Positions 2,676 to 61,656 of a stretch of DNA of 64,000 nucleotides are shown here, in pieces (position 1 is the stretch's first letter; each line of letters opens with the position of its first letter). Origin of the DNA: Rhizaria sp. SCN 62-66 (Eukaryota); NCBI GenBank assembly GCA_001724265.1, contig MEDY01000076.1:1-64000 (forward strand). The letters run 5' to 3'. The notes under the pieces are model-generated. The model worked only from the letters and a program-made list of their open reading frames with translations, was not told where the DNA came from and did no database searches. A program made the position numbers and the translations under genes.

Positions 2676-3356
2676 GATAAGAGTCGCCCCGCTGCAGTAC
2701 ATAGACGGTGAACGTTGTGAATTGTGTCAATCAAGAGAAAATGCGGAGGAAGAGGGTGGTGAGATTCGTTGAGCGTGATGCTAAGGGTCGATGCGACAGA
2801 AAGTGGTATAACACATCACGACCAAGTTTATTTGGCAATCTCAACTACCATAGTAGAGATATTCTCGGTGTATATCGTCACATATCTCTTTTCATGGCAT
2901 CTATCGTCTCAGACGCATGATATGGACTACGAAACTCTGTGCATTTTCGTCCGATGACCACGCTGTCGTCGCAGACCGCAACCAGGCGTTTTTTTGCGAA
3001 CCGCCGCCAAACGACCAAACCGCGTGAAAGTTGAGGTTGGGGGGAGGAGAGGATAGTATCACGTCCTGTTCTCTATTCCCTCCAGAGAGAATAGCGGTTC
3101 AACAATGTGCTCTAAATGAAGAGTGCATTTTCAATATATAGAGCTTAGTCTTTCTACTCCTGGCGAATGGCAATGCTTTCAATATCTTGCGTAAACTTTC
3201 CCATTTGTCATGACCAGCACCACTACGTCCTTCGTTTCATTCAGTCTCACTTCTGATCTACAACATTGATCCCGACAACAATAGCGCTTACAAGCGTACC
3301 TTACACAAGACTTCCTACCTTAGCAGACACTTTCTGTGTCTTAACAGACCAAGACA

Positions 3357-21300: not shown

Positions 21301-24300
21301 AGGTCGACGTGCTGACGCACCCGCTTAAGTCCGAGCTTAACTTCCCCATGGGCCCCAAGACGGCGCTGGAGCCGGCGCCGCTGCGCTGGCTTGTCCCCAT
21401 CGTCATCTACGCCGGGCTGCTCACCGTCACCACGGGCGCGCCCGACGCCGAGACGGGGCGCTGGCGCGTCGACTGCCCCGCCGCCGCGGCGCTGTCGCAG
21501 TCGGCCGCGGGGCAGAAGGCGCTGCAGGCCATGGCACGCGTCATGGCGCAGGCCGTGGCCGCGGGCGCGGTGGTGCTGCAGCCGCACGTCACCGTTGTCG
21601 ACGGCAACGTTTACCACGACAAGGTCAAGGAGACTGTTGCGCGCTGGATCACACTGTTCCTGCTGCTGCGCGGCGTCGCTGCGGTCGCTGTTGACGATGA
21701 CGACGATGAGAGTAAGGAGAACACTGACGCCGCTTGCGCCAACACGGCCAATGCGAGCACCGAGGAGCTCGTGTTTAAGTACCTCACTGCCGAGTCCGTC
21801 TCAGTGATGCCCGACGACGTCGACGCCGACACAGCCGCCATTTTCACCGCCAACACGGCGACCGCGGAGAACACGGTCATGCACCGCGGCCGCAGTGCGT
21901 TTGTGGGCGATATGGTGCAGAAGCGCTTCGCCCCCGACCACATCGCGCTGCTCAACCTCACGCGCGACTGGCTGCAGGTACGTAAAATTTGACGCATATA
22001 GACCATCCTTATCTCGACAGCTGTAATTGTATTTCACTCCTAAATTTCAGTCTATAACTCGAAACTTCGCCCATATGAGCTTACTTAATGTCATTATTAC
22101 TGGTTTTTTTGTGTGTTTTGTAGGACTTCTTGCCGCACACTCTTGGCAAGATCAACCGCGTCACTTACGGTTTGCTGACGCCCGAGTACATCGCGGCGCA
22201 CCCGCAGCAGACGCACACGCGCCTGCACTCGGCCGTGCCGTACTCCGGCAAGGACGCCCCCACCGCGGCCAGCGAGTTCGCACACCCCGATATTCTCGCC
22301 GGCCTCACCGTTCTCGCCTACCGCCACCAAGTATGTTCGATCGGCAATATACCCTTCAACTTACGCAATCAAAATCTGAATCTCGAGTGTTTTATTCATT
22401 TGTGTTTAAGTCGTCGTCTTTTGTCAACGTCGTGTTTCCTTCCAATCACTCACAAATTCTACTCTCTATCGTGTTTTGTTTCTTTCACTCTTCCTAGGGT
22501 CTGCGTCGCGCCGACCTGCGCGGCCTGCTCGCGCAGATGAAGCTGTCTCTAAGCCAGGAGGCCGGCCCGTCGCACCAGCGGCCGACCTTCGTGCGCTTCC
22601 AGTCCTGGCTCACCGGCGCGCTATCATATTCCAGCAGCAGCGCTACCAGTTCGGCCAGTGCGGCCAGCGCGGCCAATGCGAGCGCCGCGACCAACACCAC
22701 GGCTGCTGCTGCGCGCGCGGCCCAGCTGCAGCAGCAGCAGCTGCAGCGCTTCAGCGGTCTTGACCTGGTTTCGCTGCAGCTCAACGACCCGACGCACGTG
22801 ACGACGATCCACACGCTGCTGTCTCGCTACCCGCCCGTGATCGAGCACTTTTTGCTCACGCAGATCTTCCCGCTCGTCATGAAGCGCCAGGACCGCAACC
22901 TCACGGCCACGGGCTACGACCTCGCCTCCCGCGCCTTGGCGCGGCGCCGCGTGGGTTTCTCGGGCACACCGTCCAACTCGCTGCCCGCGGGGCTGGGCGC
23001 CCAGTGCCACTTCGAGCACGGCAGCGAGGGCGGCGTGCTCCGCACTCTCGCGCGCGCTGAAACGGCTTCGCTGCATTGCCTGCCCGCAGGCTGGCGGCCG
23101 CTCTCGTTGCTGGCCACCGTCGCGCGCGCCTCGGGGCCCGTGTTCCACGCGCTCATCGACACGGGCGCGCTCGTCACCGGGTTCACCAACGAGGAGGCCG
23201 CGAACCAGCTTCTTAACCTCGGGCTGCCGCACGTCGACGGTGTCGTTTTCCTCGGCAAGGACTCGCGCCCCATGGTCGTCATGCGTCACCGCAGCGAGAT
23301 CACCGCGCTCACGCTCGCGCGCGACGCCTCCAGCGCCGACGGCGGTGCTAGCGCCGCCAACGGCACTGCCGGCGCTGGCGCTGGCGCTGGCTCGAGCACG
23401 ACGCCGTTGTCGCGCGCCGACAGCGAGAGCGCCGCCGCCGCCGCCGCCGCGGGCGCTGCGGGCGGCGCGAGCAAGCTGGCGGTGCCGCGCCGCAAGCGCG
23501 CCGTGATCCCCCTTGCCCAGTGCGGTCTGCCCGCCGAGCGGCGCTTCACCTTCTACGACCAGGTGCACACGGTCGGCATCGACATCAGCCAGGCGCCCAA
23601 CGCCGTCGCCGCCGTGACCGTGGGCAAGGACATGGTGCTACGTGACTACTCGCAGGGCGCGTACCGTATGCGTGGGCTCAAGAGCGGACAGCGTATCGTG
23701 ACGATGCTCCCGCCTGAGGTCGGCAGGCTCGTCTCGGCCGCGGTCACCACGGCCAAGACTATGACCGCCACCGCGCGCGCTGTCGCGGCCATCAACAAGA
23801 CCGCGTCCGACGCCAACGCTCACACGGCGAACGCGGACGTCGGCGGCTTGACTTTGAGCACCGCCGAGAGCAACGACGACGACAGCGGCGCCGCCGCGGT
23901 GACCGCGCTGTCCCCGCTGGGCGTGATCATGTGGCTGTTGACCAACGCGGCGCGCGCCGAGCAGCGTCAGTTCTTGCGCCACTGCTCTCTGCGCGCGCGC
24001 GAGACGTCCCGCGCGCTGGCGTTGCGGCGGCTGACGATCTCGCAGAACGAGCCGCTGCAGTCGCTGCTCAACGCACCCACCGCGCTGCTGGCGCCGATCC
24101 TCAACGACATCCCGATCCTTGACTCGCGTTTCGAGTCGTGCTACGCACTGGCGACGCGCACGCCGCACTTCACCGAGCGGCTGCGCACCGAGATGGCCTT
24201 GGCGGGCGCGCTCGACGTGTTTGTGCACTCGGCGGGCGACTTGCGCGTGGTCAACACGTTCCAGCGCAAGGTGGGCGTAATGATGCGCAACCGGCAGCGG

Positions 24301-39724: not shown

Positions 39725-40666
39725 TCACAGGTCGCTTTGCACCGACGACGAGTCGCCGGTCTGGTAAGCCCCCGAGCGCTTGCAGCCGCCCTTGGTGAAC
39801 AAGACACCGGCCACGCAGTTGTCCTTAAGCGCGAGCCAGACGGCCTTGTTGGGGCAGGCCTCGCGGCCGAGCGAAAGCCCGTTGCGCTTCCAGTTCCACA
39901 CGCAGCCGGCGACGACGTAGACAAAGACGGCGACGAAGAACAGAATGAGGAAGATGGAGCCGCCCGAGAGGCCCCCGTCACCGTCGTCGTCGCCGCCGCC
40001 GCCCAGGCAGCCCGCTGGGTGGTCGACGGTGAAGATGATGCGCATGACGTCGTCCGCGTCATACTCGCGGCTCGACACGGGCGTGCCCGCCTTCTTAGCG
40101 CAGTTGACGTTGACTTGGAGGCGCGTGTCGTCGATAAACTTGTCCACGGCGTTGCGGAACTCGAGCTGCACGCCCGCCGCCGTCGTCGCGGCCATGTAGA
40201 TGTCCGCGTCGGAGCGCCAACGTGCGGCCGAGAGGAAATAGGCCTGTTTCTCGGTCACGACGCAGAATGCGGCCTAGTCGTTCTAGCAGCGCGCGACGGG
40301 GGCAGCGACGCCGCAGAACTTGTAGTAGAGCTGCAGCGACGAGGCGGCCGGCAGCGGAACCATCGCAACGTCCTGCGCAAAGGCCTGCAGGTTGAAGGTA
40401 TCGCCTGTTCAGGTGGTGAAGATGTGCGTACGAACAATAGAGCAAGGAATTGATGAGGGGAGGCGAAAAGCAAAGGAGGATGGTAGGGTTCTTATGCAGG
40501 GATACAAAGTAGATCCAAGATAGAGACAAAGCGGGATACAAATTAAGCGCATATGATATGTACCGTGCGTAGTTGTAACGCTGCACTTGTTCTTGGCGGC
40601 GACTAGGGTGGAGGAGAGCGCGAGCAGCAGCACGAGTAGTGCTGAGCGGAGGACGCCGGATTGCAT
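39725..40666 (-). CDS. Mannose-6-phosphate-receptor/ATG27-like type I membrane protein, paralog A (~260 aa); exons 40666-40564, 40404-39725; two in-frame TAG codons (40285-40283, 40276-40274)
   Basis: Signal peptide, Cys-containing luminal domain, transmembrane GLSGGSIFLILFFVAVFVYVVAGCVWN and cytosolic GREACPN..W. Colinear with paralog B across both TAGs, with the same intron position and phase. Stop is TGA. Confidence 0.8.
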
Positions 40667-41333: not shown

Positions 41334-42300
41334 TCAGAGCTCATTGTGGCCGGTGTCGTTGCTGCTCGTGTGGTACGTGCCACTGCGCTTGCAGCCGTTG
41401 CGGGTGAACATGACTCCCGCCACACAGTTATCCCTCAGCTTGCACCACATCTCACGGTTGGGACAGGCTTCCCGGCCCAATGCAAGCCCGTTCCTGCGCC
41501 AATTGATGCAGCAGCCAGCGACAATGTACGCTAGGATGAGCGATGTGAAGACGATCAGGAAGATGGAGCCACCAGAGAGGCCCGACTCTGCGCTGACTTT
41601 GCACCCCGCAGGGCTATCAATGGTGAAGTAAACGTTTATCTTGTCACTCGTCGCGCTTGACTCGCGGTGCGCCACGGGTGATCCGGCCGTTTCAGCACAG
41701 TTCACGACGACATGCATGTATACGTCGTCGAACAGCGTATCCAAAGCGTTGTGAAACTCAACATGAACGCCAGTTGCGGTCGTTTCCGCCATGAAGACAT
41801 CGTCCTTACGGCGCCAGCGCGCGGCGGTAAGCTGGTACTCCCCGTCGTCGCCGGAGAGCAGACAGAACGCGGCCTCGGCCGACTGGCACTGCGGGTTAGC
41901 TGTGACGGTGCCACAGAACATCCCATGTAGAGTCAGCGACAAGGTGTCTTTGACTGGTGTGACAGTGGCGCTTTGCGCAAGAACACTCAAGTCGAAGGTG
42001 TGCCCTACAGTTGGGTACGTGGCAGTGCAGTAACACGCGGATTCATGGCGCTTAAGAATGAGATATCTTGTAAATTGTATGTTCAACTTTACTTTTAGGT
42101 TTGCGCGCGCGTGATGAAATCGAAGATAAGGACCACATCAAAGAAGTTTAAGAGTACGAGGGCGTAACATCACATAATTCACCAAAATCTATCGTAAAGG
42201 TACCTTGAATAGTGTTCACACTGCAGGATGCACTTACTGTGGCTCTACTCGCAATACAAGAGAGTATCACGAGCGCCACAGCAAGCACGGCAGCACGCAT
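41334..42300 (-). CDS. Mannose-6-phosphate-receptor/ATG27-like type I membrane protein, paralog B (~255 aa); exons 42300-42204, 42004-41334
   Basis: Signal peptide MRAAVLAVALVILSCIASRA, then CSVNTIQ|GHTFDL, transmembrane GLSGGSIFLIVFTSLILAYIVAGC and GREACPNREMWCKLRDNCVAGVMFT. Stop is TGA. Confidence 0.82.
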
Positions 42301-42976
42301 GCTGAACCTAAAAAGGCAGATTTACATAATGGTTTAATGAGGTGTAGACATAGGGGTGAAGTAAGTTGAATAAAGATTAGGTTTGCATGCGGCAGACTCC
42401 GTTTCTTTGACTGAGGGAAACGCTGCTTTGCTGGCCGTCGTATGATTTGAGTGTCGATATCATCTGCTTGTCTCCTTCGCAGCAAGAAGCAAAGAGTCAG
42501 GACAGCAACCTTAGTAGAGGCTGGAGGAAAAGCCGCCACATTGAGATGGTTATACGATCAGATTGACAATTTTTACTGAACGATGACTCTATGTCATGTG
42601 GCTATGCCGAGATACAGCTCATTTTGTGAGTTGCTATTGGCGATCTGCGAGCAGAGCTTCTTGACTCTACAGAGTTCGCGTTGCCCTACACCGCATTGCA
42701 CTCAGCAAGCTGTATAATTAAGAGGTCAAACACACAACTTGCGCATTATTCCTGACATAGGCTCTGTAGTGCCGTTGACGGAACTCCCACTTCGTTCTAT
42801 CAAGAGTTTCTCATCGTTCAGCTCATCACCCACGAAACTGCCGCTGCCCCGCTTTTGCTTTCTATACTTCGCAACACTTACAAGCTTGTGCATTCAACGC
42901 AATTTTCCTTGCTTAATTTGTCCCCGCAGTGGGTTTAGCTTATTAGCAGGTTGGCATAGGCGTTATCTGGCGTACA

Positions 42977-45900
42977 ATGGACGCCCCCTCGTCTCTCTTT
43001 ATCGCTCCCGCCCCCTCGACCGCCTCGGTCTTGGCCGCCCACGCTGCGCCTTTCTCCGCGGCCCCGTCGGTCCCGCTGCCGCCGCCGCTGTCTCCACGCT
43101 ACGGCAAGGGCGCGGCCAACACGGAGGCCGTGTCGTCGCGCACTAACGCGCGCTACGCTGACGTCTTTGCCCGCACTGCAACGCACTCGCACTCGCCCTC
43201 ACACTCTAGCTCTAGCTTCAACTCTAACTCTAGCTCTGGTGCCGTCGGCGCTGGAAGCAGCAGTACGGGGACGTTGCAGCATAGCAATAGTACGCTGTCG
43301 CTGCCACGCATATTGAAACCGCCATCAGTAGTCGCAGTTGCTACAACAACGGCAACTACTTCTACTGCGTCATCGCCCAATGCGACTGTAACAAGCGCAG
43401 GTGCAGGAGCAGTAGGAGGCGCGGGCTCTGGAGGAAGCACAGCGACTGTGGCTGCCGTGTTGGCGGCCCAGGCTAGCCCGCGGCGCAATCCCAAAAGCAA
43501 TGCTATCGTCAATACTGGCATCAACTGCAGCAACAACGCTGCTGTTACTGCGACTGCAGCGACAACTGATTCTGTTGTCACCTCCAGCGCAAGCAGTGCT
43601 CCTGCGACAGCAGCTGCAACTAACAACAGTGTGGCAACGCCTGCGAAACCCTCTTTCCGCGTTCTGAGCAACAAGTCTGCAGTCGCAGCGGTAGAAGCAG
43701 CAGACGCTTACAGTCTCACGACGACCGCAACAGCGGGCACTGCGCTCAACGGAGGTCCCTACAACGTCAGCGAGGGGAAGCGCGATGTAAGTGGGCTGGG
43801 GTCACGGTTCGTTCGTTTCCACCACAACTCGCTGCCACCGTGCGACACGAGCCTTAGCAAGAGCAACACCGCTAGTCACACAAATGCACACAAGAACAAC
43901 GCAAGCGCAGCACATGCTCGCAGCAGCGGCGATGCGCCAAAAGCAGCTTCTGAGAGCGCTCCGGCCGAGGGCAAACATAATCCTCATACTGCAGCTCCTG
44001 AAGCTCCGAGTGCAGCTCAAAGTACTCAATCTAGTAACACTGCGATCGCAAACCCTTTTGCTTCGGCTGCTGCTGCTGAGACCAACCATGCATCTGACAA
44101 CGTTGCTCCTGCTGCAGCGTGCGGGAACACATCCGTCCCAAGCCCAGTTGCGGCCGCGAACGCAACCCCAGCTCATAGCTCTAGCTCTAGCTCTGGCTCT
44201 AGCTCTAACTCTAGTTCCAGCTCTAGCTCTAACTCTCGCTCTAGCTCTAGCTCTTGCTCGAGCTTGAGCTCTAACCTGAGCAAGTCCTCTGGCTCTGGCT
44301 TGAGCTCTAGCCCCAAGGCAGTGGCGGTTGCGAGCATTAGCTCGAGCACTGCTCCCGTCGCTGCAATGTCTCACGAGCAGCTTGTCTCCGAAGTCACTTA
44401 TCTCCGGGCAGCAGTCGCCGCCGCCGCTGCCGCGACAACAGGATTATCACCTGCAAACGCAACCTCCGCCGCTGCCGCCGCCGCTGCTGCTGCTGCCGCT
44501 TCTGCTGCCGAGGCCGAGCTCGAGCTGATCATCCTCCGTCGCCTCACCTCTAAGGGGGCGCTTAAATCTGCCAGTAACAGCAAGTCCCACTCCGCCACCG
44601 ACGGCGCAACTGACGGAGACGGTGAGGCCGATAACGCCGTCCTGGTGGCCGCACTCACCGCGCGCTGCGACGCGCTGACTGAGGCCGCGGCCGCGCAGCA
44701 CGCGCGCCTCGCCCAGACCGGGGGCCAGCTCGCCACAGAGCGCGCGCGCGCTGAGGCGGTGACGCGGGAGCTGGCCGCGGCTCTTACCCGCGCCGAGGGC
44801 CTTACAGCCGCGCTGGCGGCGGTCCGGCGGCAGCGGGAGGCGCAGCACCGCGCGCTAGAGACCGCCCGGGGCGACATCGCGGCCGTCTCGGCCCGGGCCA
44901 CGCGCGCGACACACGTGCTTACGCTGACGCAGGCCAAGGAGGCCGAGGCCGAGCAGTCGGCCGCCGCCGCGACCGCCGCCGCCGCCGCCGCGGCCGCGGG
45001 CGGGGGCGCGGCCGCAGCGCGGGCGGAGGAGGCCGAGGCACGCGTGGCGGCTCTGGAGCAGCGCCTCGCAGACTCGGAGGATGCGGCGGCGGCACAGAGG
45101 CAGCGTGCGGCCGCGGCCGAGGCGCGCGCGGACGACGCCGAGGCCGGCGCGCGGTCGCAGAAAGCGCTGGTGGCGGCCGCGGCGGCGCGCGCGCGGGCGG
45201 CCGAGGCCGAGACTGGCCAGTTTCGGGCGCTGGTGGGCGTGCAGGAGCGGGAGCGCGAGGCCGAGTGCAAGGCGCACTCTGCGGAGGCGGCGGCGCTCGC
45301 GGCCAAGGCCGGCAAGGCTGAGCAGGAGCGCGCGGCCGCGGTCAAGCTGTCCGAGACGGCTGTTGCGGACGCGAGCCGGGCTCTTGCCAACGCGGCGGCG
45401 GCCGAGGCTGCTCGTGCGCAGTTGCAGCAGGAGCTCGAGGACGCCGTTGCCGCCGCCAATGCCCACGAGACTGAGCTTTTGCAGCAGCTCGCAGCGAGTA
45501 AGGGCCGGGAAAAGGCGTTGACCGCCGCGAACGAGCAGCTTCAGGCGAAGCTGGCGAGCGCAGAGGACGCCGTCGCCGCCGCGACCAAGGCCCGCACTGC
45601 CGCCGACATCACCATCGCAGAGCTGACTCTAGACCTGCGCAAGTTAGGCCGCGAGCGGTCGCAGCTTGAATCGAGGCTTGAGAACGCCGTCGCCGCCGCC
45701 GCCGCCTCGGCTGCCGAGACGGCCCGCACCCAGGACGCGTTGGGCGCCGCCCGCGGCGAGGGCGCAGCAGCGCGCGCGGCGCTGGAGCAGTGCGGGCGCG
45801 AGCTGCGGACCGCGCAGACCGAGGCCGGGGCCGAAAAAAGGCGCGCAGAGCGGCTCGCGCGCGACGCCGTCGAGTCCGCGCGCGCCGTCGACGTCGCGCG

Positions 45901-47036
45901 CGCGGAGGCGCAGTCGCACAAGGCCGCCGCGGCTGCACTGGAGACGGCGAAGGGGAAGCTCGAGGAGCGCGTGGCGGCGGGCGCGGCGGCGCTGGAGAGT
46001 GCCAAGGCAACTGGGGCGGAGCGCGGCGCGCGCGCGGACCACTTGGCAAAGCAGGTGAACGAGCTCTCAGCGCTGCTGGCGCTGACACAGAGCGAGGCCA
46101 AGGAGGCGCGTCTGGCCGCCGCCGAGGCGCGCGTCAAGGCCGAGAGCGCGCGCATTGCGGCCGCGTCTGGTTCAAGCGGCAGCTCGAGCCGCCGTGGCAC
46201 CGGCGAGAGGGAGGCCGCCGCCGCCGCCGCCGCTGCGTCCAGGGCCGCGGAGGCCGAGGTGGTGTCACTGCGGTCCGCCGTGGCGGCCGAGACGGCGCGC
46301 GCCGCGGCCGCCGAGGCCGAGAATGACGACACGCGGGCGCGGCTGGCGGCCGCCGAAGATCGGGCCGCCTCCGCGGCCACGGCCGCCGCTGCAGAGGCTA
46401 GTCGGCTCGGCTCAGCGCTCGCGCACAGCGAGGCCGCGCTAGCGGCGGCCAAGGCGACGCTCGCGGAGGCGGCGGCACTCGTTACGACCGCGGAGGCCGC
46501 CGCCGCTGAGGCCGACGCGCGCGCGCAGGACGCGCTGCGCAAAGAGGCGGCGACCGCGGCGCGGCACGAGCAGTGCGACCCCACGATCTTCTACCTTGAC
46601 GACCGCGTGCGGGGTCTCGAGGCACGGCTGGCGCGCGAGCAGGGCAGCGAGCGCGTGCTGGGACAGGCGACTGTGCGCGCCGTCGTGGCGCAGCGCGAGC
46701 AGGACGCCGCCGAGCGCGCGCGACAGGAGGCGAGCGATAAGCTAAGCCGTGCTGAGACGGCGGCCGCGAAGGCAATCGCGGAGCTCGAGGCGACGCTGAG
46801 GCGCGCGCTGAGGGCCGAGGCCGAGGCGGAGGTCGCCAAGGCCGCGTTGCAGACTGCTGCGACGACCGCGTCATCGTCCACGGTCGCATCAGCGACGACA
46901 ACAACAACGAGCGCGGGCGCTGCTGGTAGCGGTGGCAAGAAGGGCAAGACTGGCAGCATGAGCAAGAAACCAGCTCTCTTGAACGCTAGTAGTGCTGCGG
47001 CTGCGGTCGCAACGCCCGCACCATCGAGCCCGGATG

Positions 47037-47071
<35 letters not shown>

Positions 47072-48618
47072 GCTGATGACGAAGAGACGGACGCCTTCGA
47101 CCGGGCGGCTACTTTGCCGAACACGCACTCTCAACACAACAATCCTCCTAATGCGGCCAGTCTCTACGGTGCGGGCGCTGGAACACAAGGCGGCTTGACT
47201 TCCGCCGAGGCGGGCTTGAGTGTCACGACCGACTTCGAGCGTCAGCAACGGTTCCAGATCGTCGTGTCGCCGTTCACGCCTTCGTCCACGTCGTCCTCTG
47301 CAGCACTGTCGCGTCCAACGTCGTCGACGTCGCACACGTACACTGGCCACAGCAGCAGCGCCGCCAATAACGCTAACTCGAGCACAACGAGCGGCAGCAG
47401 CAACAGCGCCGTCGTCGCCCCCGCGGCCTCGCCTGCCTTCGCCGTCGCAGCACCCATCCTCGTGTCGCCCACCGGCACTCCCGGCCTGACCGCGACAGGA
47501 GCAGCCACAACAGCAACAGCAGCAGCTGCAACGGCAGCTACAGCGACAGCCACGAAGGCGCCGGCCAAGGTGAGCTTCACCACGACACCTGCTTCTGCCC
47601 GGTCGTCAGCCACAACGACGGCGACGGCGGCGGCGACACGGGCGCCGCAGTCCGCGACCAGGTCGCGCGGCGCTAGCAGGACCAGCGGCGGCGCCAAGGC
47701 CAAGGACGGCGCGGGGAGCTCCTCTCCAGCTGAGACTGGGGCCGAGGCGGCGGTGGAGGCGGAGCTCGTGACCGTGGGCGCGGGGGCGTGGCAAGCAATG
47801 CAGAGCGACTGCGCGGCGGCGACGGCGCAGGTACTTTCACTCACGCTGCGGCTGGAGGCGCTCGAGTCGGAGCTGGGCGAGAGTAAGCGCAGCATGGAGC
47901 GCGCGCGCATCAGCTACCAGATCTCGATGGAGAAGGCTACCAGAGGGGCCATGGCTGCGGCGTCGCCGGCGGCGGCCGCGGCGGCGGTCGCACTCGCGGT
48001 CTCCGGCAGCAACAGCAGCGCCAGGAACAACTACAACACGAGCAGCAACAGCGACAATACCGCTGTCACCAGCAGCAGCAGCAAGAGCAGCGGTGACGCG
48101 AGACACAAGAGCAACAACAGCAGTCCTACTGCTAGTGGGACGGCAACGCTGATGATGATTCGCGCCGACTCTCCCAGCGCTCACGCCGCGACGACTACTG
48201 CGGCTGGTGGCACGGCTACTGCGGCTGCTGCTGCTGGTAGTGAGAGCTCTGTGGTTGATACTGCTGCTGTTAATCCTGCTCCTGTGAGCCAAAACAGCGA
48301 GGTTAGGCCGCCGCCGACGCTGATTGGCGAGGAGAGGGAAGCGATCATTGTTGAGCTTGCAAAGAAAGTACGCCGAAATATTCACATTCAAACTTTATGT
48401 CACTGAGAATTTATGCTGAATCCAATGTTTTTCTTGTCTCATCCTGAACTATTCTTTGCGTTGACTGATTTTTGTTACCCTTTGTGTAGAACGCTGCGTG
48501 CCACGCGTTGGAGCAAATGGTTGCTTCTTTGCGCGCAGCTCTTGCTGCTGCGACTCTCACTGTGCCCCAGCTGCCGTCTGGCCCCAGTATCTTAGCACAT
48601 GCAACAACAGAGCAGTAA
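42977..48618 (+). CDS. Hypothetical ~1,839-aa protein with a long Ala/Glu/Arg-rich coiled coil flanked by Ser/Ala/Thr/Asn low-complexity regions; exons 42977-48367, 48490-48618
   Basis: Long ORF with coding-type codon bias and a heptad-like A/E/R/L composition at ~44640-46850. A GTACGC...TGTAG intron leads to a final exon NAACHALEQMVASLRAAL..., ending in TAA. Confidence 0.75.
44176..44310 (+). repeat. Imperfect (TCTAGC)n hexamer repeat encoding poly-Ser inside the coiled-coil gene; a shorter copy lies at ~43204-43236
   Basis: tagctctagctctagctctggctctagctctaactctag... seen directly. Confidence 0.8.
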
Positions 48619-51151: not shown

Positions 51152-54100
51152 ATGCGGCGGCCACATGCAAGACAAGTTGAGCTACAGATTCCTGCTTGGT
51201 CGGTCTGGCGTGGGAATAACCGCTTTTACTGCGGCGGCCGCATCATTGCAGGACCTTCACTGCGACGACTCGTGGTGACAGTGAGCCTCTTACTCCTCAC
51301 CATGCTGCTTGCAGTCACTGTTTTGACTACACAACTTAAACCGTCATCTGCTCTTGCAACAACAGCGATTATTCTTTTTAGCGTTAGCTCTATTGCGAGT
51401 TGCATCGCGCTGTACGCCTCCAATCCCGGTGTATTACCCAGAGCTGCACTGCTCAACGCGTACGTTCACTGCCGCGGTCGTGCAAAGGCAAACATCGCAC
51501 TTGAGACAATGTCAAACCGTCTTGGCTTGCAGCATGCACTTCATTCTCTGAGCCTTTTCAACACGACTATGCGTCGTAATTTATATCCCAACAGCGTAAC
51601 CACGAGTCCGGCAACGGCTGTGACCGCGGCCGTAAGCGCGTTGAGCTCAATCGAGCGTATTGATGACAGCACAACAAATGCTGCGATTGAGACTGCGCCA
51701 GGTGACAATCCTGCTGCGCAAAGTAACGTCGAGCCAAGCAACTCATCTCTGATGGGCGTCGGGTTACTTCAGCATCAGCTGCGGCAAAAGCTTCTCAAAC
51801 ACAACCGAACTGAAGGCAAAGCCAGTAGTGACAGTGCCAGTTGCAAGGCAAAGTTGGACTCGTTGTGTTTGGTTGCAGATGAGTCACACCTGGGGCCGCG
51901 AGTGCCTCCGTGGGCTCTGGGGCTTGTCGCAGACCTTGGCACCGCTGTGGCGCCGCCGCTGCTACACACGGTGTCACTTCAAGAACTCAAACGAGAGAAC
52001 GTGCAGGGGCTTGAAGAGACTCCCACCCCAGACAACAACCCACACGCACAACAAAAGCACATTGGTTCGCGACTTCATGAGCTAAACCAAGAGCACGACC
52101 GGTTGCAGATGCAAGAGCGAGAGCAGTGCAGTCACGTTCTCGCAGCCACGTCGACACTTCGTGAGGCTGTCACGAACGCCGTCGTCACTTTGGAGCTCTG
52201 CCTGGGTGAGAAACGGGTGCCCGAGTGCGAGTGGTGCTGGGACTGCTGTATACTGAGGCCGCGGGTAACGTCGGCGCACTGCAGTAACTGCGGCAACTGT
52301 GTCGAGCACTGGGACCATCGTACGTTGACACGATATCTTTATGAACAAATGAGCATGAACGATTGTGACTTTGTTGGCGCTAGGCGCAATCAACTACATC
52401 CGCAAATGTATCACCGAATTGATTGACTCATATCGCATTTACTCTGTTTGTCATTGTCGCTCACAGACTGCGGCTGGGTCGGTAACTGTGTCGGTGCAGG
52501 CAACTATCGCTTGTTCCTAACCACAATTGCACTCAACGTTTGCAACTTAATCACACTCTTTGCAGTAAGCTTAGCGTACTTAAAGCGCGTATCATCGCTA
52601 TTTCCGACTTTGATAGACGCGTTTAATGCGCACTCGTTTGGCTTCTCCCTCGCAGTTCTCTTGGTGCCTATTTGCACTGCTGTTGCAACGGTGTTCTTAC
52701 ATACGTTTCTTTTGCAAGTAAAGGCTGTCGGACCAGAGCAAGGCGCAACAACAATGCTGCTACAGCGCGGAAGAAGTGCACTATTTCCAGGACTTAAACC
52801 AAGTCAAGCAACGTCGATGATTCGCGATGTTGAGGCTGCTACTGCGACGGTTGCTGCTGCGGCGGCGGTGACTCGTGACGATGGAGGTTACGGACAGCGG
52901 CGTGCAATGACACAGCATAACTACGCATATGACTACGATTACGAGTTTAGCAGCGCGGTTAATGATGCGACTGTCAGCGACAGTGTTGTCAGTGCTAGCG
53001 CTGAGTGCTACAGTGAAGAGGAGGACTTCGGTTACGATGGCGGAAACGCTATGACTGGCTTTGCGGTGTATCGGCAACGGCAGCAACAGCTGTGGGAAGC
53101 TAGGGTTAGGTGCTATCAACAGTTGTTTTGCCCATCTCCGACTTAGTCCTCTTACGGGGAGGATAATAATATCATAGCAACTTCAGTCGATACGGACACG
53201 AAAGGTGGAAACACACATACAGCCAAAGAGGAACAACAACACGCCAGCGCGGTTGACAGCCGCGCCGAGTTAGAGTCTTGTACGAGCGGTAGTACAAGTG
53301 CTCACACTAGCTGTGTAGACAACGTTGTGTCGCATATTTCCTACGCACACAAGCCACAGCCAAACTCTTCGATGAAATCGCAGCAACAGTTGCAAACAAG
53401 TCCGATCCAGTCACACGCGTAGATACAGCAGTGTTCTAAATCACTGTCAACAAGTGATATCACATTGTCGGAGAGTAAGTTGCAGATGTCGGAGTCATTT
53501 TCACTCCACTCACAACACAGTGTAAAACAGGAGAATCAGTGCCACAACAGTGCTCGTCTAAAATCACCAAACTTAGAGTCACTTCCGCGTTCACAGTCTC
53601 AGCATCATAAGAGAAGCAAATCAAATGCGTGTAAAGATGTGCAAAGTGGTCTTATGAGCAAAAGTACTCAGCAAGGTTCTATATTTACACTTAATCCATC
53701 TCCTGCATCGGTGATCCCATCGCAGTCAAGGGGTGCTTACAATGAACCAAACGCACTTGGTGTTAGCCACAGTCTAAGCGTGCCGGAATTATCTGATCTA
53801 AGCGGTGCGTTTTCAATCCCTCTCTCACTACCTTCATTCAACAGTAGTCGGCTGTCCTTTAGCGCGGACACAAACACGCTATCCGGTCACAGTAGTGATG
53901 ATTGTGGCAATAGCGTTATGCATGCTGGTGAGAATGAGACGGACAAGCTGAGCTTTGCGTCGCTGTCTTCTCTGACAATGCCACCTCCGCCCAGCAACAC
54001 CTACGCCACACAACGTTCGGCCCGTCAGCAAAGATGTTTGCAACAGCGACGTCTAACGCCAGAAAGCAACGTAGCGTGCGTAATAAACACAAGATGCAGT

Positions 54101-56074
54101 GATACCCAAGTCGCACATACTTCTCGTAAGCATGCAAAACATCCAGCCACAAACACGGCAGAATCTAAAGCAATTGCTGCAGCTCTGGCTCTAGCAAAAT
54201 TAGAAGCTGATGCTCAAGCTGTTGCAAAAGCCAAGGCTGACGCGGAGGCCAAGGCTAGGGCTGATGCAGAGGCTCGGGCCAGGGCAAAGGTGGCCGCGGC
54301 CGCGCTTGGTGCAGCAATCCGCGCTGCGGCCGCCGTACGCACCGCCGCGACCGCCGCTGTTGCAGCCGAGATCTCCGGTTTGCAGGCGTCGCTGGCGGCA
54401 CCGCGACTGCGGCGCGAGACCCGGCGCGCACAGTCGCTGCTGATGCGCTTTGCAGGCGGCTGCGCGGGGGCGTTGGCTCTGTTTGCTGGCTGCATGCGCG
54501 CGTGGGGCCGGGGGCCAGTGCTGGGCCCGTTGAGGTGTGAGGCGGGACATCGCGCTGCTGTAGCTGTAAAGCTGGCTAAGGCGGGTGAGGACGGCGGACT
54601 TGTTGAGCTGCTGCAAAGCGGGTTCAAAGTTAAGACTGACAGCAACTGCCAACAAAGTGACATTGATCATGAGGATGATGCTAGTGGAGTTGTCGTTGAC
54701 CATGATGTGTTTGTTGATTGGATTAACGGATCTGCAACACAGACCCTTGTCAACGGTGCGGCTCAACAGCTGCATTCATCTCAAGTCGCGAAATATGAGG
54801 AGCAACAGCGGCAGCTCGAAAGTCACGCAAGGTCTACGGCTGCTGGTCGTCTACTGAGGAGGCGCAAGCAACAACAGCAGAATCATCATATTCAACAAGC
54901 AGCAGCCATTTCTAACGCGACACGAATTGGTCGGCTGTTTTAGCGTTTGGACACAGCGGATGTGAGAGCGACAGAGCCGATATCAGTGGCACCACTGTCA
55001 CGACGTGACACCTTGCCTGTTCCTATAGCTGCAACAGTGACGCGTGCAACACCGTTAAACCAGAATCTAACAGTGATGGACGTCATCCTGCCGCGCAATC
55101 TAAACAATATCAACGCACACGCAAATATGCACTTGCACCGACAGCAAACAGCAAGGCAGCGCACCAACACAAGCTTAAGCAATGGTAGCTCGTGGTGTTG
55201 TAGGTCTCGGCGACACGGATATGAGACAGACGAAGTTGCTGTTACATTCTTTGACGTTTTCACCGCACCTGTTAGCATTGCGCGTTTACGCGAGTTTGAA
55301 TACGCCGAGCGAACCATGCAGAGTGCTATGTACTACTCGACTCTCAACAGCGAGAACCCTATTAACGACAGCAGTGACCACACTGAAAGTGATCGCGACG
55401 ATGACGACATTGGTCATGGCCCTGGCAATGCAAATGCTACCCGAAAGCAGCATGGCGTCAACCCAACAGCTCCTGCGGGCACCACTACAAGTGCAGCGAC
55501 TGTGGAGCTGAGTGAGAGCAGCAGTGAAGTTGATAGTGAGCTCAGGGCAGAGGCACTGCGCATTGCACGAGCTCAGTTCCATAGTCGCTACAGCAAACAG
55601 ACAACACAGCACACAGCTGCACTGACAGCTGTCGGTGTCGACTCACGTAATATCAAAGCTAATGAAGGTGGTCTTAGGCATGATAGTACGATTCAAAACA
55701 GCAACGGTCATGTTGCTCAGCATGCACACATGCGCACACACACCCGTGAGCGTGACAAACGGGATGCAAAGCCTCGTCGCCAGACAGCGACTCAGCAACG
55801 CGATCGTCATAGCACTGCGTTCGGCGACACCGACAGTGATGACGATAACGCAGGGCAGCAAACACGCGCGAATCAGAGCAGCAATCGCCGCGGACGTGCC
55901 GCTGCCAGCGGTGCCAATCATAGTCGTCGCGGTGACCGCGAGCGCACTCGCAGTAGGCACCGTGACTCGGCCACCGTTGTTGCCCCTCATCGCAGTCGTG
56001 AGCAGCAACAACGACCTCGAAACAAAAGCAAACACTCTTCCACCGAAGCAGTTTGGTTTGATGAAGACAATTAA
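51152..56074 (+). CDS. DHHC palmitoyltransferase with a long loop insertion and long C-terminal tail; exons 51152-52319, 52467-56074; three in-frame TAG codons (53144, 53420, 54941); ~1,591 aa if TAG is sense
   Basis: N-terminal WRGNNRFYCGGRIIAGP, two transmembrane segments, NPGVLPR, then WCWDCCILRP...AHCSNCGNCVEHWDH|HCGWVGNCVGAGNYRLF with the DHHC motif split by a GTACGT...CACAG intron. The frame has no TAA or TGA until the TAA at 56072-56074. The DHHC call is secure; the 3' extent depends on TAG being read through. Confidence 0.8.
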
Positions 56075-56417: not shown

Positions 56418-58800
56418 TCAGAAGTCGGGGCGCTCGAGCTCCTCGTCGTCGTCGTCCGAGTCATCGGCGCGCTTCTTCTTGCCCTTGGCGCCCTTCTTGC
56501 CCTTACCGTCGTCCTCGGGGTCTTCGGCGTACTTGCTGGCGCTCTTAGCGGCGGGCGCGGCGGCGGCGGCGGCGGGGGCGGGCTTGGCCTTGGGCGCGCC
56601 GGCGAGCAGCACCTCGGTCGGCACAGGCCCCATGATCTCGCCCGCGGCCTGCTGCCACGCGTCGAGCGACATGTTGCCCGCCGAGGCGAGGAAGTCACGA
56701 GCGTTGATGAGGTCTGTGCCGCCGACGATGAGGTTCACGCGCAGCGCATCGGCGAGGATGTTGATCTCGCGCGCCTCAGAGTACGTCAGCCCGCCGGCCA
56801 CGAAGACGATGAAGTGCGGCTCGACCACCTCGCTGCCCTTAGAGGACCCGCTCGCGCCCGACTTATCGCGTTTGTTGCGGCGCGTGCGGAGCGCGCCCGC
56901 GCCGCCGCCGGGCTCATCGCGCTGCTTCTCGCTCACGTAGGGGAAGTCGGCCGTGGAGAGCTTGTCCTCGGCGAGCTCCTTGGCGATCTGCCACAGCAGC
57001 GGCACGTAGCGCAGCAGCACGATGTTCTCGACGCGCTTCTGGCCCTCCTTGCGGCGTGACGACTCCATAGGCGTGCCCTTAAACTTCTCGTCGGTGAACT
57101 TGATTCCCAGCTGCTCGAGCCCTGTGACGGCGCCCAGGCACTGCTCGGGGATGCCGCGCATCAGCTCGCGGCGCGTCGAGGCCTGCACGCCGCCCTGCGT
57201 CAACATGTAGACGAGAACGAGACGGAGACGCTCCTCGACGCCCAGCTTGGGGTTCTGGCAGAGCGAGATGAGCGACGACTTGGCGCGCTTGACCGACATG
57301 GCCTCGCCCTGCTCGTCGTAGCCCGTGGCGAAGTCCTGCTCCAAGTCGCCAATCTCCTTGAGCAGGTGCGCGTCAATCTTCTTCATGCACTCGGCAGACA
57401 GCGCCGTGTGCTGCGCGAACTTGCCCAGCGTCGCAGAGTAGGCGTTGAAGTCCTTGAGCGCCGCGGCCATGTCCTTGACCGAGACGTCCTTAGGCTTGGT
57501 GCCCGCCTTGGCAGCCTTGGCACGCTCGTCCTCCATCTTGGCCAGCTTGTTCTCCTTCTTGAACGCCTTGAGCTGGGCCGGAATCTCGGACATAACGGTG
57601 CCGATGTGGTCGTGGCGGTGCGCGCGCCACAGAGGGTCCTCGCCCTCGTTGAGGATCATTGTGCGCTTCGCCTTCTCCTCGGAGCTCTGGCGGTGGTAGT
57701 CCTCGGAGCTCAGGAAGCACAGCTCGCCGTGATTGCCGCACACGTCGTGCACAAGCGCCTGAAAGAAAAGAGAAGAAAAACACAGATGCAACAAGAAGGA
57801 TAATAAGTGAGTCGGTGTTGCTGAAGGATTTCACGACGTAAGAACACATGTTTCGATAAAACAACGATCAATCTCCACACAGAAACTACACCGGTATCTA
57901 AATCCATTAAACTGCATTGGTTTTGTTTTATATCAAGCGATAGATCGTACCTGGTAGGTGAACTCGTGCATGAGCGGGGTCAGAATGTCGACGGCGCGGT
58001 CGACGATGAGCATCGAACCGTGCGTCTTGCCATGCCAACGCGCGTTCTCCTTGGTGAAGTTGAGCTGCTGGTCCACGGTCTTGGCCAGGATCTTGGCGAT
58101 GCGCGAGCGCGAGTCATATCGGATCGCGGGGTCGTCAGACAGCGTGACGCACAACGACACAAGCTGGCGCGCAGACGAGAGGATCTCGTTGTTGAACGAC
58201 TCCTTGTCCGAGGACCAGAAGAGCGTGGGCAGCGTGTTGGGGCGCGAGAGCGTGAACACACGGTCCTCGCGCGCCGTGAAGTCAACGTTGAGCTCGACGA
58301 GGCACTTGGAGCGGCGCACGATCTTCTGCCCCGAGAACATGTCCATGACGGCGTCGGGGATGGCACGCGTGAAGAACACGTGCGCCTCCTTGTACTGCGG
58401 CTTGTCTTTGAAGTCGTCAATGAGGCGGCGCGCAGATTCAGGCGTGGGGTCAAGGAAGTAGATGGCGCCGAAGGACGGGAGCGGCTCGCGGCGGCACGCG
58501 ATTGCCTCGATGGCGATGATGCCGTGGTTGATGAGCTCGGTCGCGCGCATGCAGGAGGAGATGACCTTGGCCGTGTGCTGGTCCAGGACGAGCACGACGC
58601 GCTCGCCCTCACCGCAGACCGCGCCAACCATGTCGTCCACGATGCCTGTTGTTTGAAGGGCGAAACAACAACAATCGAGTTAAAAGAAAGAGAGCGGTGA
58701 GCTAGCTGTTAAAAGCGAATGAGATCAGAAAAGGACGATATGTGCACTGTTAAGGTATTCGACGAGACGTACGGGACTGAAGAGAAGCACGCAGGCTCAT
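56418..58800 (-). CDS. SEC1: Sec1/Munc18 (SM) family protein, Sec1-like; exons 58800-58773, 58645-57951, 57758-56418
   Basis: Motifs VLVLDQHTAKVISSC, REPLPSFGAIYFLDP, LIVDRAVDILTPLMHEFTYQ|AL, DPLWRAHRHDHI, LEQDFATG and IVFVAGGLTYSEAR. Stop is TGA. Confidence 0.93.
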
Positions 58801-59286: not shown

Positions 59287-61656
59287 ATGGGCAACTACTA
59301 TTCGTGCACGAATGTGCCACCTCACACTAAACAGTGCTTGGCATGTCTCCCCTGGCAGGTACGTCTAAAGCGCATCATAATCTCAACCATTCTAAACCGG
59401 ACTAATATGCCAGTATATATCACCAACTACCGCTTTAAGTGTATCCGCGAATTCGCGTCCAGATCTTGTATTGGCTCTGCAACTCATCTTTCATTTCTTC
59501 ACCCTACCACACCCCACGTTCGTTTTTCTTTCGTCGTTGCTTGCTTCCCACGCACATTTTCGTCCTCTTCAACGCAGCACTGTCGCATGTGCTACTACGA
59601 CTGCGACCCTGCTGCTTTTCCCACGGACCCAACCGCCTGCGCCGGCAAAACAATCGCCTACTGCGTCCTCAGCGCCTAGAAGATGAGCACCTACTTTTTC
59701 GTTCTGATCATAGTTTTTTCGGTCCTCGCGCTCTCGCTGTGCGTGCTGGCCTACCGCCGCCGCAAGCACGCCTTCCTGACGCCCCTCACGGCGCACGCGG
59801 CGTCGCAGCGTGGCTGTTTCTGCCCCATCTGCGGCACGGCGCAGCTGTCTCTCATCCACGCGGCCGTCTTCCGCTGTGGCAACCAGGCCTGCGGGCAGCA
59901 CTTGCGCGCCCGCACCGCCCTGCACAACTCGTACACAGCCGCCGCGACGGCCCGCAACACGACGCGGAGCAACGACAACGCTGCTGCGGGCGCTCGCGGG
60001 CGTGGTCGGGGCAGCAGGGGCGGTATTTCTGTGCGGAAGCAGACGGTTCGACGCGACGAGAATGACCTGGCCAGTGACGACGACAACAACAACGACGAAG
60101 ACGACGACGATGATGACGAAGATAAGAAGAATAACGGCGACCACTGTGCCGGTGACAGCCTGGCTGCACATAACAATCGGAATCGGCGTGCCAAATGCAA
60201 GAGCCACGTTATGCGCAACAACAGGTTTGATTATTCCGACGAGGCTGCTGCTGACGGCGATAGCACCCACGGCGGTACTGGTGACGGGATGTTCAATGAT
60301 TTCTATGAACCGTCGATGTTTCGTCTTGTTTCCGTTAATTCACGCAGCAGCAGCAACAGCATGAGCAGCAGCAACAGTAAAAGCAGTAGCAAAAACAGTA
60401 CCTACAGCAACTCATCTAACTCCAAGAGGAAAAGCAGCAAGAACAACACAACAAAGACCAGTGTGAATAGCAATAGCAAGAAGTCAGCAGCAGCAACCCC
60501 GACTGCTGATCCCCCTAAGGATAAAACCCCTGCGGTTAAAGTTAAGCCGCCGCGCGGCGCCATCAGCTGGGACGATAGCGGGTCCGCGGTCGTGGCGTTC
60601 TTGACTGACTCCGCGACTGTTACGGTACCTGTGCCGAGCCAGGCGCAGGTTGCAGCGCAATATCGCCGATTCTACAACGGTAACAGCACCGCCGGTAAGC
60701 GTGGTGGGGGCAAAGCGAAGGCTGGGAGCAGCAACAAGGGTAAGAGCATTCAGTTTGCCGAGGAGGCTTTGGCTGAAGAGGAGGAAGCTGACGATTACGG
60801 CGACGACGACGACGACGATGATGATGATGATGATGAGTGTGCTCGTAAAAACAAGAGTATGGCTCGGAGGCATCGCAGTGGTGGCATTGATGATCATGGT
60901 AACCAAAACAATGACGAGGACAGTGCAAGTGTGAGCGTAAGCGTGACCGAAAGCAGGCGTCACTTGCTCAGCCCTCGCAACAACACTCACGACGACGACG
61001 ACGGCGGCGACGACGACGATGAACATGATGACCATGATGATGCGGATGGTAACGAAGAGTATAACGTAGAGTATTACCACAATGTTCACGGCAAGAACGG
61101 CTACGACATCAGGAGTCACAACGACGACGATGAGGACGAGGACGATGAGGACGAGGATGATGAGGACGAAAACGACGAGGACGAAGACGAGGACAACGGT
61201 GGCTTCTTTGGCAACGGCGGTATCTTTGGCTTAGGTGGCGGCCGCAATCCCCATCACCGCAGCCGCGACGACATCGATGCGAACTATAGCCATAGCGGCA
61301 GTAACAGTGACCATGTGACCAGCGACGACGAGGAGGGGGGCGCGTTCTCTAAGGGTGCCCAGGGGTACTTAGGCGGGTCGCTGCTGCCCCTGTATGCGTC
61401 GCGCGCTCGTGAGTACACTTACGCCACGCAGAACCAGCAAAACCACAACAACACCAACGACTACAATACCAACAACTGTAGCGTTGGGAGCAGCAACAGA
61501 GCCGATCGCAGTCGCAGGCAAAATAACAATAACCATCTCGCGAATAACAGCTTTGCGTACAGCAATAATAACTCGCATACCCAGAGCAATTCTAGCGCAA
61601 ATCAAGGAGTTAGTGGGACGCGTGTGCAAAGCAAGAAGAGCAGTCGCCGCCAGTGA
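59287..61656 (+). CDS. Hypothetical single-pass membrane protein (~716 aa): Cys-rich N-terminus, transmembrane helix, CxxC zinc-ribbon-like motif and Asp/Asn/Ser-rich tail; exons 59287-59358, 59578-61656; one in-frame TAG (59677-59679)
   Basis: ATG at 59287 and a CAG|GTACGT...ACGCAG intron. Coding-type codons run through ...YCVLSA*KMSTYFFVLIIVFSVLALSLCVLAYRRRK, followed by CPICG...FRCGNQACG. Stop is TGA. Confidence 0.7.

Follow-up and report, generated by a model that had tools for sequence, protein, structure and literature searches.

In-frame TAG codons in a DHHC-type acyltransferase gene and in two further genes point to UAG as a sense codon in a GC-rich eukaryote from wastewater metagenomes

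Nuclear genetic codes in which UAG alone has changed from stop to sense are described from few lineages, namely Iotanema, a single rhizarian of the Sainouroidea and certain phyllopharyngean ciliates (PMC5304391, PMC11687900). In Iotanema spirale (Metamonada, Fornicata), UAG specifies glutamine (Gln) while UAA and UGA remain stops, a meaning that was set by likelihood over many conserved sites and that is accompanied by a T32G change in the GTS motif of the release factor eRF1 (Panek et al. 2017, PMC5304391). In the rhizarian exLh (Sainouroidea), UAG specifies leucine (Leu), 384 in-frame UAGs were counted in 71 genes, the terminators are only UAA (56) or UGA (15), and highly expressed genes contain few UAGs (PMC5304391). 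Phyllopharyngean ciliates have undergone independent UAG-only changes to Leu or Gln, with UAA as stop and with suppressor transfer RNA (tRNA) genes identified, and these cases came from mining metagenome and genome data (McGowan et al. 2024, PMC11687900). Here we analyze a stretch of 64,000 nucleotides (nt), referred to as the window (positions 1 to 64,000 of the forward strand of contig MEDY01000076.1, assembly GCA_001724265.1, deposited as Rhizaria sp. SCN 62-66), in which the gene for a DHHC-type S-acyltransferase carries three in-frame TAG codons. Based on the open frame of this gene, on TAGs within conserved regions of two further genes (one of them from a relative) and on the lack of TAG terminators, we consider it likely that UAG is decoded as an amino acid in this organism and that its genes end only at UAA or UGA. 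This is probably another UAG-only nuclear reassignment, of a kind already known, the value of which hinges on the lineage and on genome-wide confirmation.

How does this locus compare with the described codes? As in Iotanema, UAG alone appears changed with UAA and UGA as stops, and the residue would be polar with Gln among the candidates; the differences are that three informative sites are available here, that the organism is GC-rich (exon GC content at third codon positions, GC3, up to 0.9) and of aerobic type, and that UAG is far sparser. The likeness to exLh lies in a non-ciliate, UAG-only change without UAG terminators and in the scarcity of UAG in biased genes. Unlike in exLh, Leu is disfavoured here (a score of -5.8 versus +3 to +5.5 for Gln, glutamate (Glu) and lysine (Lys)), and 5 TAGs occur in ~14,500 codons. 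With its GC content of 0.46-0.73, its 147-192-nt introns and its origin on a 178-kb contig, the window was judged not to be ciliate-like, which separates it from the phyllopharyngeans, and the literature searched, in its available portions, named no UAG change in a GC-rich wastewater organism outside the ciliates. A new case, if true, would be an independent data point on stop-codon capture from a GC-rich, intron-bearing wastewater organism found in two studies, and the very low UAG density with none at gene ends is the expected look of an early stage. Moreover, gene callers using the standard code have already split or truncated public protein predictions (P0001, P0002, P0003 and P0015), so that annotation of this lineage needs the right code.

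The second exon of the DHHC gene (52467-56074, forward strand) runs 3,608 nt in a single frame to the TAA at 56072-56074 and is interrupted only by TAGs, at 53144-53146 (PSPT-TAG-SSYGE), 53420-53422 (IQSHA-TAG-IQQCS) and 54941-54943 (GRLF-TAG-RLDTA; the standard-code fragment P0001 stops just upstream). An earlier note on this DNA had claimed such a frame, and the frame and the first two TAGs lie where it put them, while the third TAG, for which its reading-frame boundaries implied 54944-54946, lies 3 nt away from that position. The context that it quoted, SQQQLQTSPIQSHA followed by the stop and IQQCSK, is present at the second TAG, which is also the only stop within 53147-53464, as the note had read. 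Its count of about 975 codons after the first TAG without TAA or TGA was likewise accurate, since 53147-56071 comprises 975 codons with 0 TAA, 0 TGA and 2 TAG; indeed the full 1,201-codon stretch with all three TAGs is free of TAA and TGA. Stop counts in the remaining five frames of 53147-56071 are 34, 83, 36, 32 and 39. When the sequence was shuffled 2000 times in blocks of 300 nt, TAA and TGA together had a mean of 28.2 and a minimum of 13, versus 0 observed, and TAG had a mean of 13.4 and a minimum of 3, versus 2 observed, which makes TAG depleted as well. TAG in this frame thus behaves as a rare codon of a coding frame and unlike non-coding sequence. Of tandem repeats the stretch has a single small one (24 nt x 2.3, 54230-54285), and therefore repeats do not account for the open frame. 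GC at the first, second and third codon positions is 0.60/0.48/0.57 and 0.56/0.48/0.49 in the core exons, and the three downstream pieces resemble these with 0.49-0.61/0.48-0.52/0.47-0.52; this profile differs from that of the housekeeping genes (GC3 0.87-0.92). For these reasons, namely the open frame, the depletion of TAG and the codon-position GC shared between core and tail, the whole DHHC gene including its tail appears to be one weakly biased coding unit.

The first exon (51152-52319, forward strand) starts at the ATG at 51152, as counted from the translation, and ends ...HWDH. It holds an N-terminal region that we take to be a GNNRFYCGGRIIAGP region, with the names of the other parts likewise our own assignment: two hydrophobic stretches, a long insert and the first half of the Cys-rich domain; by itself it gave no Pfam match at E<=0.01. 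The intervening 147 nt (52320-52466, a multiple of three, gtacgt...ctcacag, GC 0.41, with an in-frame TGA at 52424-52426) are predicted from the sequence to be an intron, because excision restores the codons GAC CAT C|AC TGC, and the catalytic D-H-H-C tetrapeptide would be intact only with this intron removed. Exon 2 completes the DHHC domain and continues with two hydrophobic stretches and the tail. Its match to the Pfam DHHC family PF01529 (E-value 3e-07; 31 bits, above the cut-off of 28.7; residues 1-85 of 52469-53143) spans profile positions 36-118, and the first 35 positions fall, by eye, in exon 1. The Cys-rich domain and the flanking hydrophobic stretches, the latter judged by eye, are like those of zDHHC/Pfa/Erf2-type S-acyltransferases; the ~240-residue insert before the Cys-rich domain and the orphan tail of ~1,100 residues are not. 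The tail is of low complexity, with an Ala/Lys/Glu-rich, coiled-coil-like stretch near 54150-54500, and the public standard-code predictions within it are P0001 (485 aa) and P0002 (315 aa). An exhaustive search of 1.84 billion representative sequences for homologues of the tail returned 2 matches, both of them fragments 100% identical to the query, and a word-index search with P0001 returned, among 8000 scored candidates, only P0001 itself. Apart from an orphan tail of unusual length, the gene encodes an ordinary palmitoyltransferase core, and no special biology is read into this tail beyond its being specific to the lineage and largely of low complexity, with the coiled-coil-like stretch.

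A second gene with in-frame TAGs lies on the reverse strand and encodes a membrane protein like ATG27 and the mannose-6-phosphate receptor (ATG27/M6PR-like; gene B). Its exon 2 (39725-40404, TGA stop, Pfam ATG27 E-value 3e-09) reads YYKFCGVAAPVARC-TAG-AAC-GAC-TAG-AAFCVV, in translation FCGVAAPVARC-TAG-ND-TAG-AAFC, with the TAGs at 40283-40285 and 40274-40276. The 159-nt intron upstream (40405-40563, gtacat...aacag) is predicted from its own sequence and from homologues that read ...CSVTT..GDTFDL unbroken, and exon 1 (40564-40666) would supply the ATG and a signal-peptide-like segment, MQSGVLRSALLVLLLALSSTLVAA, as judged by eye against loci L001-L004 of a metagenome scan described below. In an alignment of gene B with its tandem paralogue A and five database homologues (alignment A1), no gaps occur between FCG and AAFC across both TAGs, which lie between the invariant Cys32 and Cys41/AAFC, and gene B keeps all 20 of the 20 invariant columns. 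The gene is otherwise intact: its ATG, signal-like exon, intron and transmembrane block LSGGSIFLI are all present, its C-terminus coincides with that of the homologues, and its GC3 is high on both sides of the TAGs. Since every part is retained and all of its internal stops are TAG, gene B does not look as a decaying pseudogene would be expected to. The paralogue A has no TAG; its last exon spans 41334-42137 on the reverse strand and its first exon starts at 42300. The two tandem copies (39725-40666 and 41334-42300, both reverse) are 50% identical and share the invariant block GLSGGSIFLI, and homologues of these ATG27/M6PR-like proteins occur on at least 18 other metagenome contigs.

The third gene comes from a relative. 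Scanning metagenome contigs with alignment A1 gave 19 loci (L001-L019), the closest of which, L001-L006, are 33-45% identical and have a GC content of 0.57-0.62. L005, within the same GC range and with an ATG27-like gene of 42% identity, also carries an open reading frame (ORF) of 703 codons with GC3 0.87, five MORN repeats (Pfam E-value 2e-34) and one TAG, at 1520-1522 of that contig. This TAG lies inside a MORN repeat, YKGDWLDNK-TAG-HGFG (ACG TAC AAG GGC GAC TGG CTG GAC AAC AAA TAG CAC GGC TTT GGC). P0016, an orthologue with 63% identity across 97% of the query, aligns for ~40 residues before the TAG, with ...QTVYWVKAKAPQD...SKWETGTTYKGDWL.NK, and throughout after it, so the TAG is internal to the coding sequence. 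A standard-code version that starts past the TAG, P0015, occurs on 5 contigs from three sources, and therefore this TAG is not a one-off assembly error. More generally, the standard-code fragments P0001 and P0003 each occur on 3 contigs, and the second DHHC TAG is found with 0 mismatches in a contig (53267-53424) of run X2, which belongs to a different study; taken together with P0015, these recurrences show that the TAGs are not assembly noise. The other large ORFs of L001, L003 and L006 contain no TAG. A further locus, L007, is from a different, lower-GC eukaryote (34% identity, 20.5 kb of a 65-kb metagenome contig) with two ATG27-like genes.

If UAG is a sense codon, where do genes end? The 15 gene ends in the window comprise 8 TAA, 7 TGA and 0 TAG, and 0 of 9 gene ends in the relatives L001 and L003-L006 are TAG (L002 duplicates L001 and was omitted). 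The terminator was taken as the first standard stop of each gene, with the TAGs of the DHHC gene and gene B read through by hypothesis; the sample is small, and the ends of Rpt5, RPL34 and both ATG27-like genes agree with the C-termini of homologues while the remaining ones are first stops. All 6 internal stops are thus TAG versus 0 of 24 terminal stops, and the chance of such a split, given 6 TAGs among 30 stops, is 1.7e-6 (1 in 593,775). The use of TAA over TAG at the ends of genes with GC3 ~0.9 would seem the opposite of what composition predicts. Some ORFs of L007 and of the bacterial L019 do end in TAG, a loose contrast and no rigorous control. Several other TAGs were set aside: those just 5' of the ORFs at 22495, 42944, 59677, 62594 and comparable sites appear to belong to non-coding sequence, either 3' splice sites or 5' untranslated regions, and a GC3-based scan for further in-frame stops was dropped because its output was mainly antisense frames of real genes.

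A further question is which amino acid UAG would specify. Aligned sequences have Q, A, Q, T, S, S, R and I at the first TAG of gene B (40283-40285), E, K, N, K, T, N, K and Q at the second (40274-40276), and E, K and K at the MORN TAG of L005 (1520-1522); the same position in the other MORN repeats of the L005 protein is R, R, R, Q, R and P. Mean BLOSUM62 scores summed over the three sites are 5.5 for Lys, 3.3 for Glu, 3.2 for Gln, -5.8 for Leu, -5.5 for tyrosine (Tyr) and -8.6 for tryptophan (Trp), and when only the closest relatives (Q, E, E) are counted, the values are 12 for Glu, 9 for Gln and 3 for Lys. These alignments suggest a polar residue and make Leu, Tyr and Trp unlikely. The earlier note had taken its observations, among them the Gln-rich run around the second DHHC TAG, as independent support for Gln; a sense codon is indeed what gene B, the MORN gene and the absence of TAG from 24 gene ends indicate, but Gln in particular is not singled out, as Lys and Glu fit too, and the Gln-rich context is no test of the residue since the entire tail is Gln-rich (77 CAG and CAA in 1,201 codons). 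Across the block, gene B reads TGC TAG AAC GAC TAG where paralogue A reads TGC CAG TCG GCC GAG. Owing to precedent and to this one CAG/TAG transition pair between the paralogues, Gln is our tentative first choice, although with less than even confidence; Lys is rather unlikely and Glu slightly more so. To our knowledge, a reassignment of UAG to Lys, if true, would be the first of its kind among nuclear codes.

With UAG as a sense codon, the DHHC gene would form one coding sequence of ~1,591 codons, in which exon 1 (51152-52319) would be joined across the 147-nt intron to exon 2 (52467-56074), to yield a palmitoyltransferase core that continues into ~1,100 residues of lineage-specific and mostly low-complexity tail. 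Its three TAGs would then be ordinary rare sense codons. By analogy with other reassigned codes, UAG would be decoded by a tRNA with anticodon CUA, and eRF1 would have a weakened recognition of UAG. The search with ARAGORN found 0 tRNAs in the window and, among L001-L019, only a tRNA-Arg(CCG) in the unrelated L007; Rfam gave 0 matches in the window, and the eRF1 gene is absent from it. The sparse UAG, and its absence from strongly codon-biased genes, may be what is expected of a codon that is poorly decoded or recently gained. A more specific scenario, which we regard as doubtful, is that of an undescribed GC-rich non-ciliate lineage with relatives in several metagenomes, caught at an early stage of the stop-to-sense change, with UAG lost from gene ends yet still rare and found mainly in genes of weak codon bias, and with Lys or Glu perhaps in place of Gln.

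Assembled RNA contigs offer a partial view of the DHHC transcript. Contigs of the polyA run X1 match 53537-53768, 54148-54569 and 55160-55443 with 0-1 mismatches and fit a long transcript through the tail; transcript ends, strand and the span of single molecules across all three TAGs are not readable from such assembled contigs. Among the contigs of X1, X2 and X4, none lies over the first TAG, the third TAG or the DHHC intron, which is not evidence either way, and none shows a splice joint in the DHHC gene. The stretch at 54150-54500 also draws partial matches from contigs of other organisms, seen as loose ends at 54233-54407 in X1, X2 and X4, and a C>T variant in X1 lies at 54345, in a second codon position.

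Could each TAG instead lie inside a small intron with a length divisible by three, so that the mature mRNA has no internal stop? The DHHC gene does have one such intron with an in-frame stop (52320-52466), and pairs of the loose donor pattern GT[AG]NG...YAG with a suitable length span all three TAGs (6, 3 and 18 pairs across the first, second and third, respectively, consistent with chance pairs). With the strict pattern, which demands a real donor form (GTACGT, GTACGA or GTACAT), 0 candidates were found across the TAGs, and the one decent loose candidate, 53280-53576, was rejected because its acceptor is unspliced in the X1 contig 53537-53768. Moreover, local GC shows no dip of the kind seen in the real intron, and homology is continuous through the TAGs of gene B and of the MORN gene, which introns cannot explain; this account is therefore very improbable. 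An ambiguous or leaky UAG, which terminates in some contexts and is read through elsewhere by a natural suppressor or a near-cognate tRNA, is a somewhat better candidate and is still unlikely. Its parallels would be programmed readthrough or codes in which the meaning depends on context, as in Condylostoma, Parduczia and Blastocrithidia (the last for UAA), and it would fit the very sparse TAG (6 in ~18,700 codons) and its absence from strongly biased genes, as with inefficient decoding. The observations that speak against leakiness are the absence of TAG from all 24 terminators, the three successive TAGs in one ORF and the two within four codons of gene B, which would leave very little full-length product without efficient decoding, and the base that follows the six TAGs (T, A, C, A, G and C), which shows no common readthrough context. 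In programmed readthrough, as known from viruses and Drosophila, a tRNA decodes UAG to give a C-terminal extension, and normally one leaky stop ends a complete protein. Here TAGs lie in series and also inside conserved domains of genes other than DHHC, TAG is missing at gene ends, and readthrough of a single gene was rejected on these grounds and on the lack of a common 3' context.

The simplest alternative is that the standard code applies, such that the DHHC protein stops at 53144-53146, the tail consists of cut-off and decaying sequence or of orphan genes corresponding to P0001 and P0002, gene B is a young pseudogene and the MORN gene starts past its TAG. A DHHC protein ending at 53146, ~225 residues past the DHHC motif, would be of ordinary size; an orphan tail makes truncation of the DHHC gene alone compatible with the data; the function of gene B could be covered by its intact neighbour copy; and the giant ORFs of the window are without any TAG. 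These points are outweighed by several others. Each of the 6 internal stops is a TAG, and neither TAA nor TGA nor a frameshift interrupts these genes; the supposed spacers 53147-53485 and 54944-55126 also remain in frame and free of TAA and TGA, for which we estimate by hand, from how densely stops fall in the other frames, a probability of ~3e-4. Gene B retains every invariant residue as well as its codon bias, and P0016 aligns upstream of the L005 TAG, including half a MORN repeat. Consequently we find the standard code improbable, a little more so than a leaky UAG.

Several observations weigh against a sense UAG, the reading that we prefer, and they should be considered together. The sample is one window and a few short contigs. 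The standard code would leave the DHHC gene as the one gene among 15 that ends in TAG and would make gene B a young pseudogene, neither of which is absurd by itself. That the DHHC tail is translated is judged solely from its stop-free frame, and because the tail is an orphan, its three TAGs cannot be compared with CAA or CAG in orthologues. No RNA contig bridges any of the DHHC TAGs by 31 nt on each side, the X2 contig over the second TAG stopping 2 nt past it, and RNA libraries can hold DNA. The density of TAG, ~0.3 per 1000 codons (6 in ~18,700 counted codons, of which the window alone contributes 5 in ~14,500), is far sparser than in described organisms with a sense UAG. Finally, its distribution is uneven: the three giant ORFs (10,332 codons, 286 CAG and CAA) contain 0 TAG, while the DHHC gene and gene B (~1,800 codons, 101 CAG and CAA) contain 5, a contrast that we estimate by hand at ~1e-3. 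CAA makes up 23 of 286 Gln codons in the giants and 43 of 93 in the DHHC gene, so the lack of TAG in the former is in part a matter of codon bias, which softens the contrast without removing it. Gene B is a high-GC3 gene yet holds two TAGs, a case that codon bias does not cover.

The remainder of the window places these genes in context. Its DNA is eukaryotic, with recognisable genes on both strands and a GC content that is very uneven (0.46-0.73 per 2 kb). Genes for transketolase, sedlin, Rpn6, Maf, a histidine-phosphatase-like protein and RPL34e are present, as are those for an Rpt-type AAA ATPase (Rpt5, C-terminus ...LQYYA) and for the mitochondrial ATP synthase subunit g, the latter indicating an organism of aerobic type. 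The Pfam scan of ORFs bounded by TAA or TGA, with TAG taken as sense, covered 69 of the 169 listed ORFs (>=88 aa) and was what first pointed to gene B. Two classes of genes are intermixed: housekeeping genes and giant ORFs have GC3 of 0.73-0.92, and the DHHC gene, an ORF at 59680-61653 and the ATG27-like gene A have GC3 of 0.5-0.68. By class, 3 of the 5 in-frame TAGs fall in the low-GC3 DHHC gene, and gene B belongs to the high-GC3 class. Convergent with the DHHC gene is a Sec1-family gene, the last exon of which (56418-57758, reverse strand, Pfam Sec1 E-value 9e-55) ends at the TGA at 56418-56420, 343 nt from the TAA at 56072-56074 that we propose as the true DHHC terminator. The Sec1 intron 57759-57950 is removed (joint 57757>57950) in contigs of both X1 and X2, and hence both runs hold spliced RNA of this organism.

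One sequencing run contains 94% of the sampled words of the window, and parts of it occur in RNA-type runs from activated sludge and wastewater in two studies. A scan of viral contigs with Rpt5 returned 24 loci at 35-46% identity, none of them of the organism's lineage, and scans of genome contigs with Sec1 and with alignment A1 gave 0 confirmed relatives each. Protein-cluster look-ups yielded generic eukaryotic clusters for Sec1 and bacterial ones for transketolase. The largest ORF (3345-21992, forward strand) is unbroken and intronless over 6,215 codons, with GC3 0.86 and a TGA stop; its sole Pfam match is DUF3638 (near residues 2,535-2,623 of the second half, E-value 5.5e-10), and long open frames lie opposite to it, as expected at 66-73% GC. 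A second giant (42947-48406, forward strand, 1,819 codons) has an extreme Ala/Ser/Thr content, being Ala-rich with long coiled-coil-like runs, and has no Pfam match and no TAG. Introns in the window are few, of low GC and 147-192 nt long, with the donor GTAC(G/A)(T/A) in the three that were checked base by base: GTACGT at 52320, GTACGA at 57950 (reverse strand) and GTACAT at 40563 (reverse strand). Translations past other exon ends, in Rpn6 and Rpt, start with VR, which suggests GTACG donors there as well, and this GTAC-type donor consensus might be of use in placing the organism.

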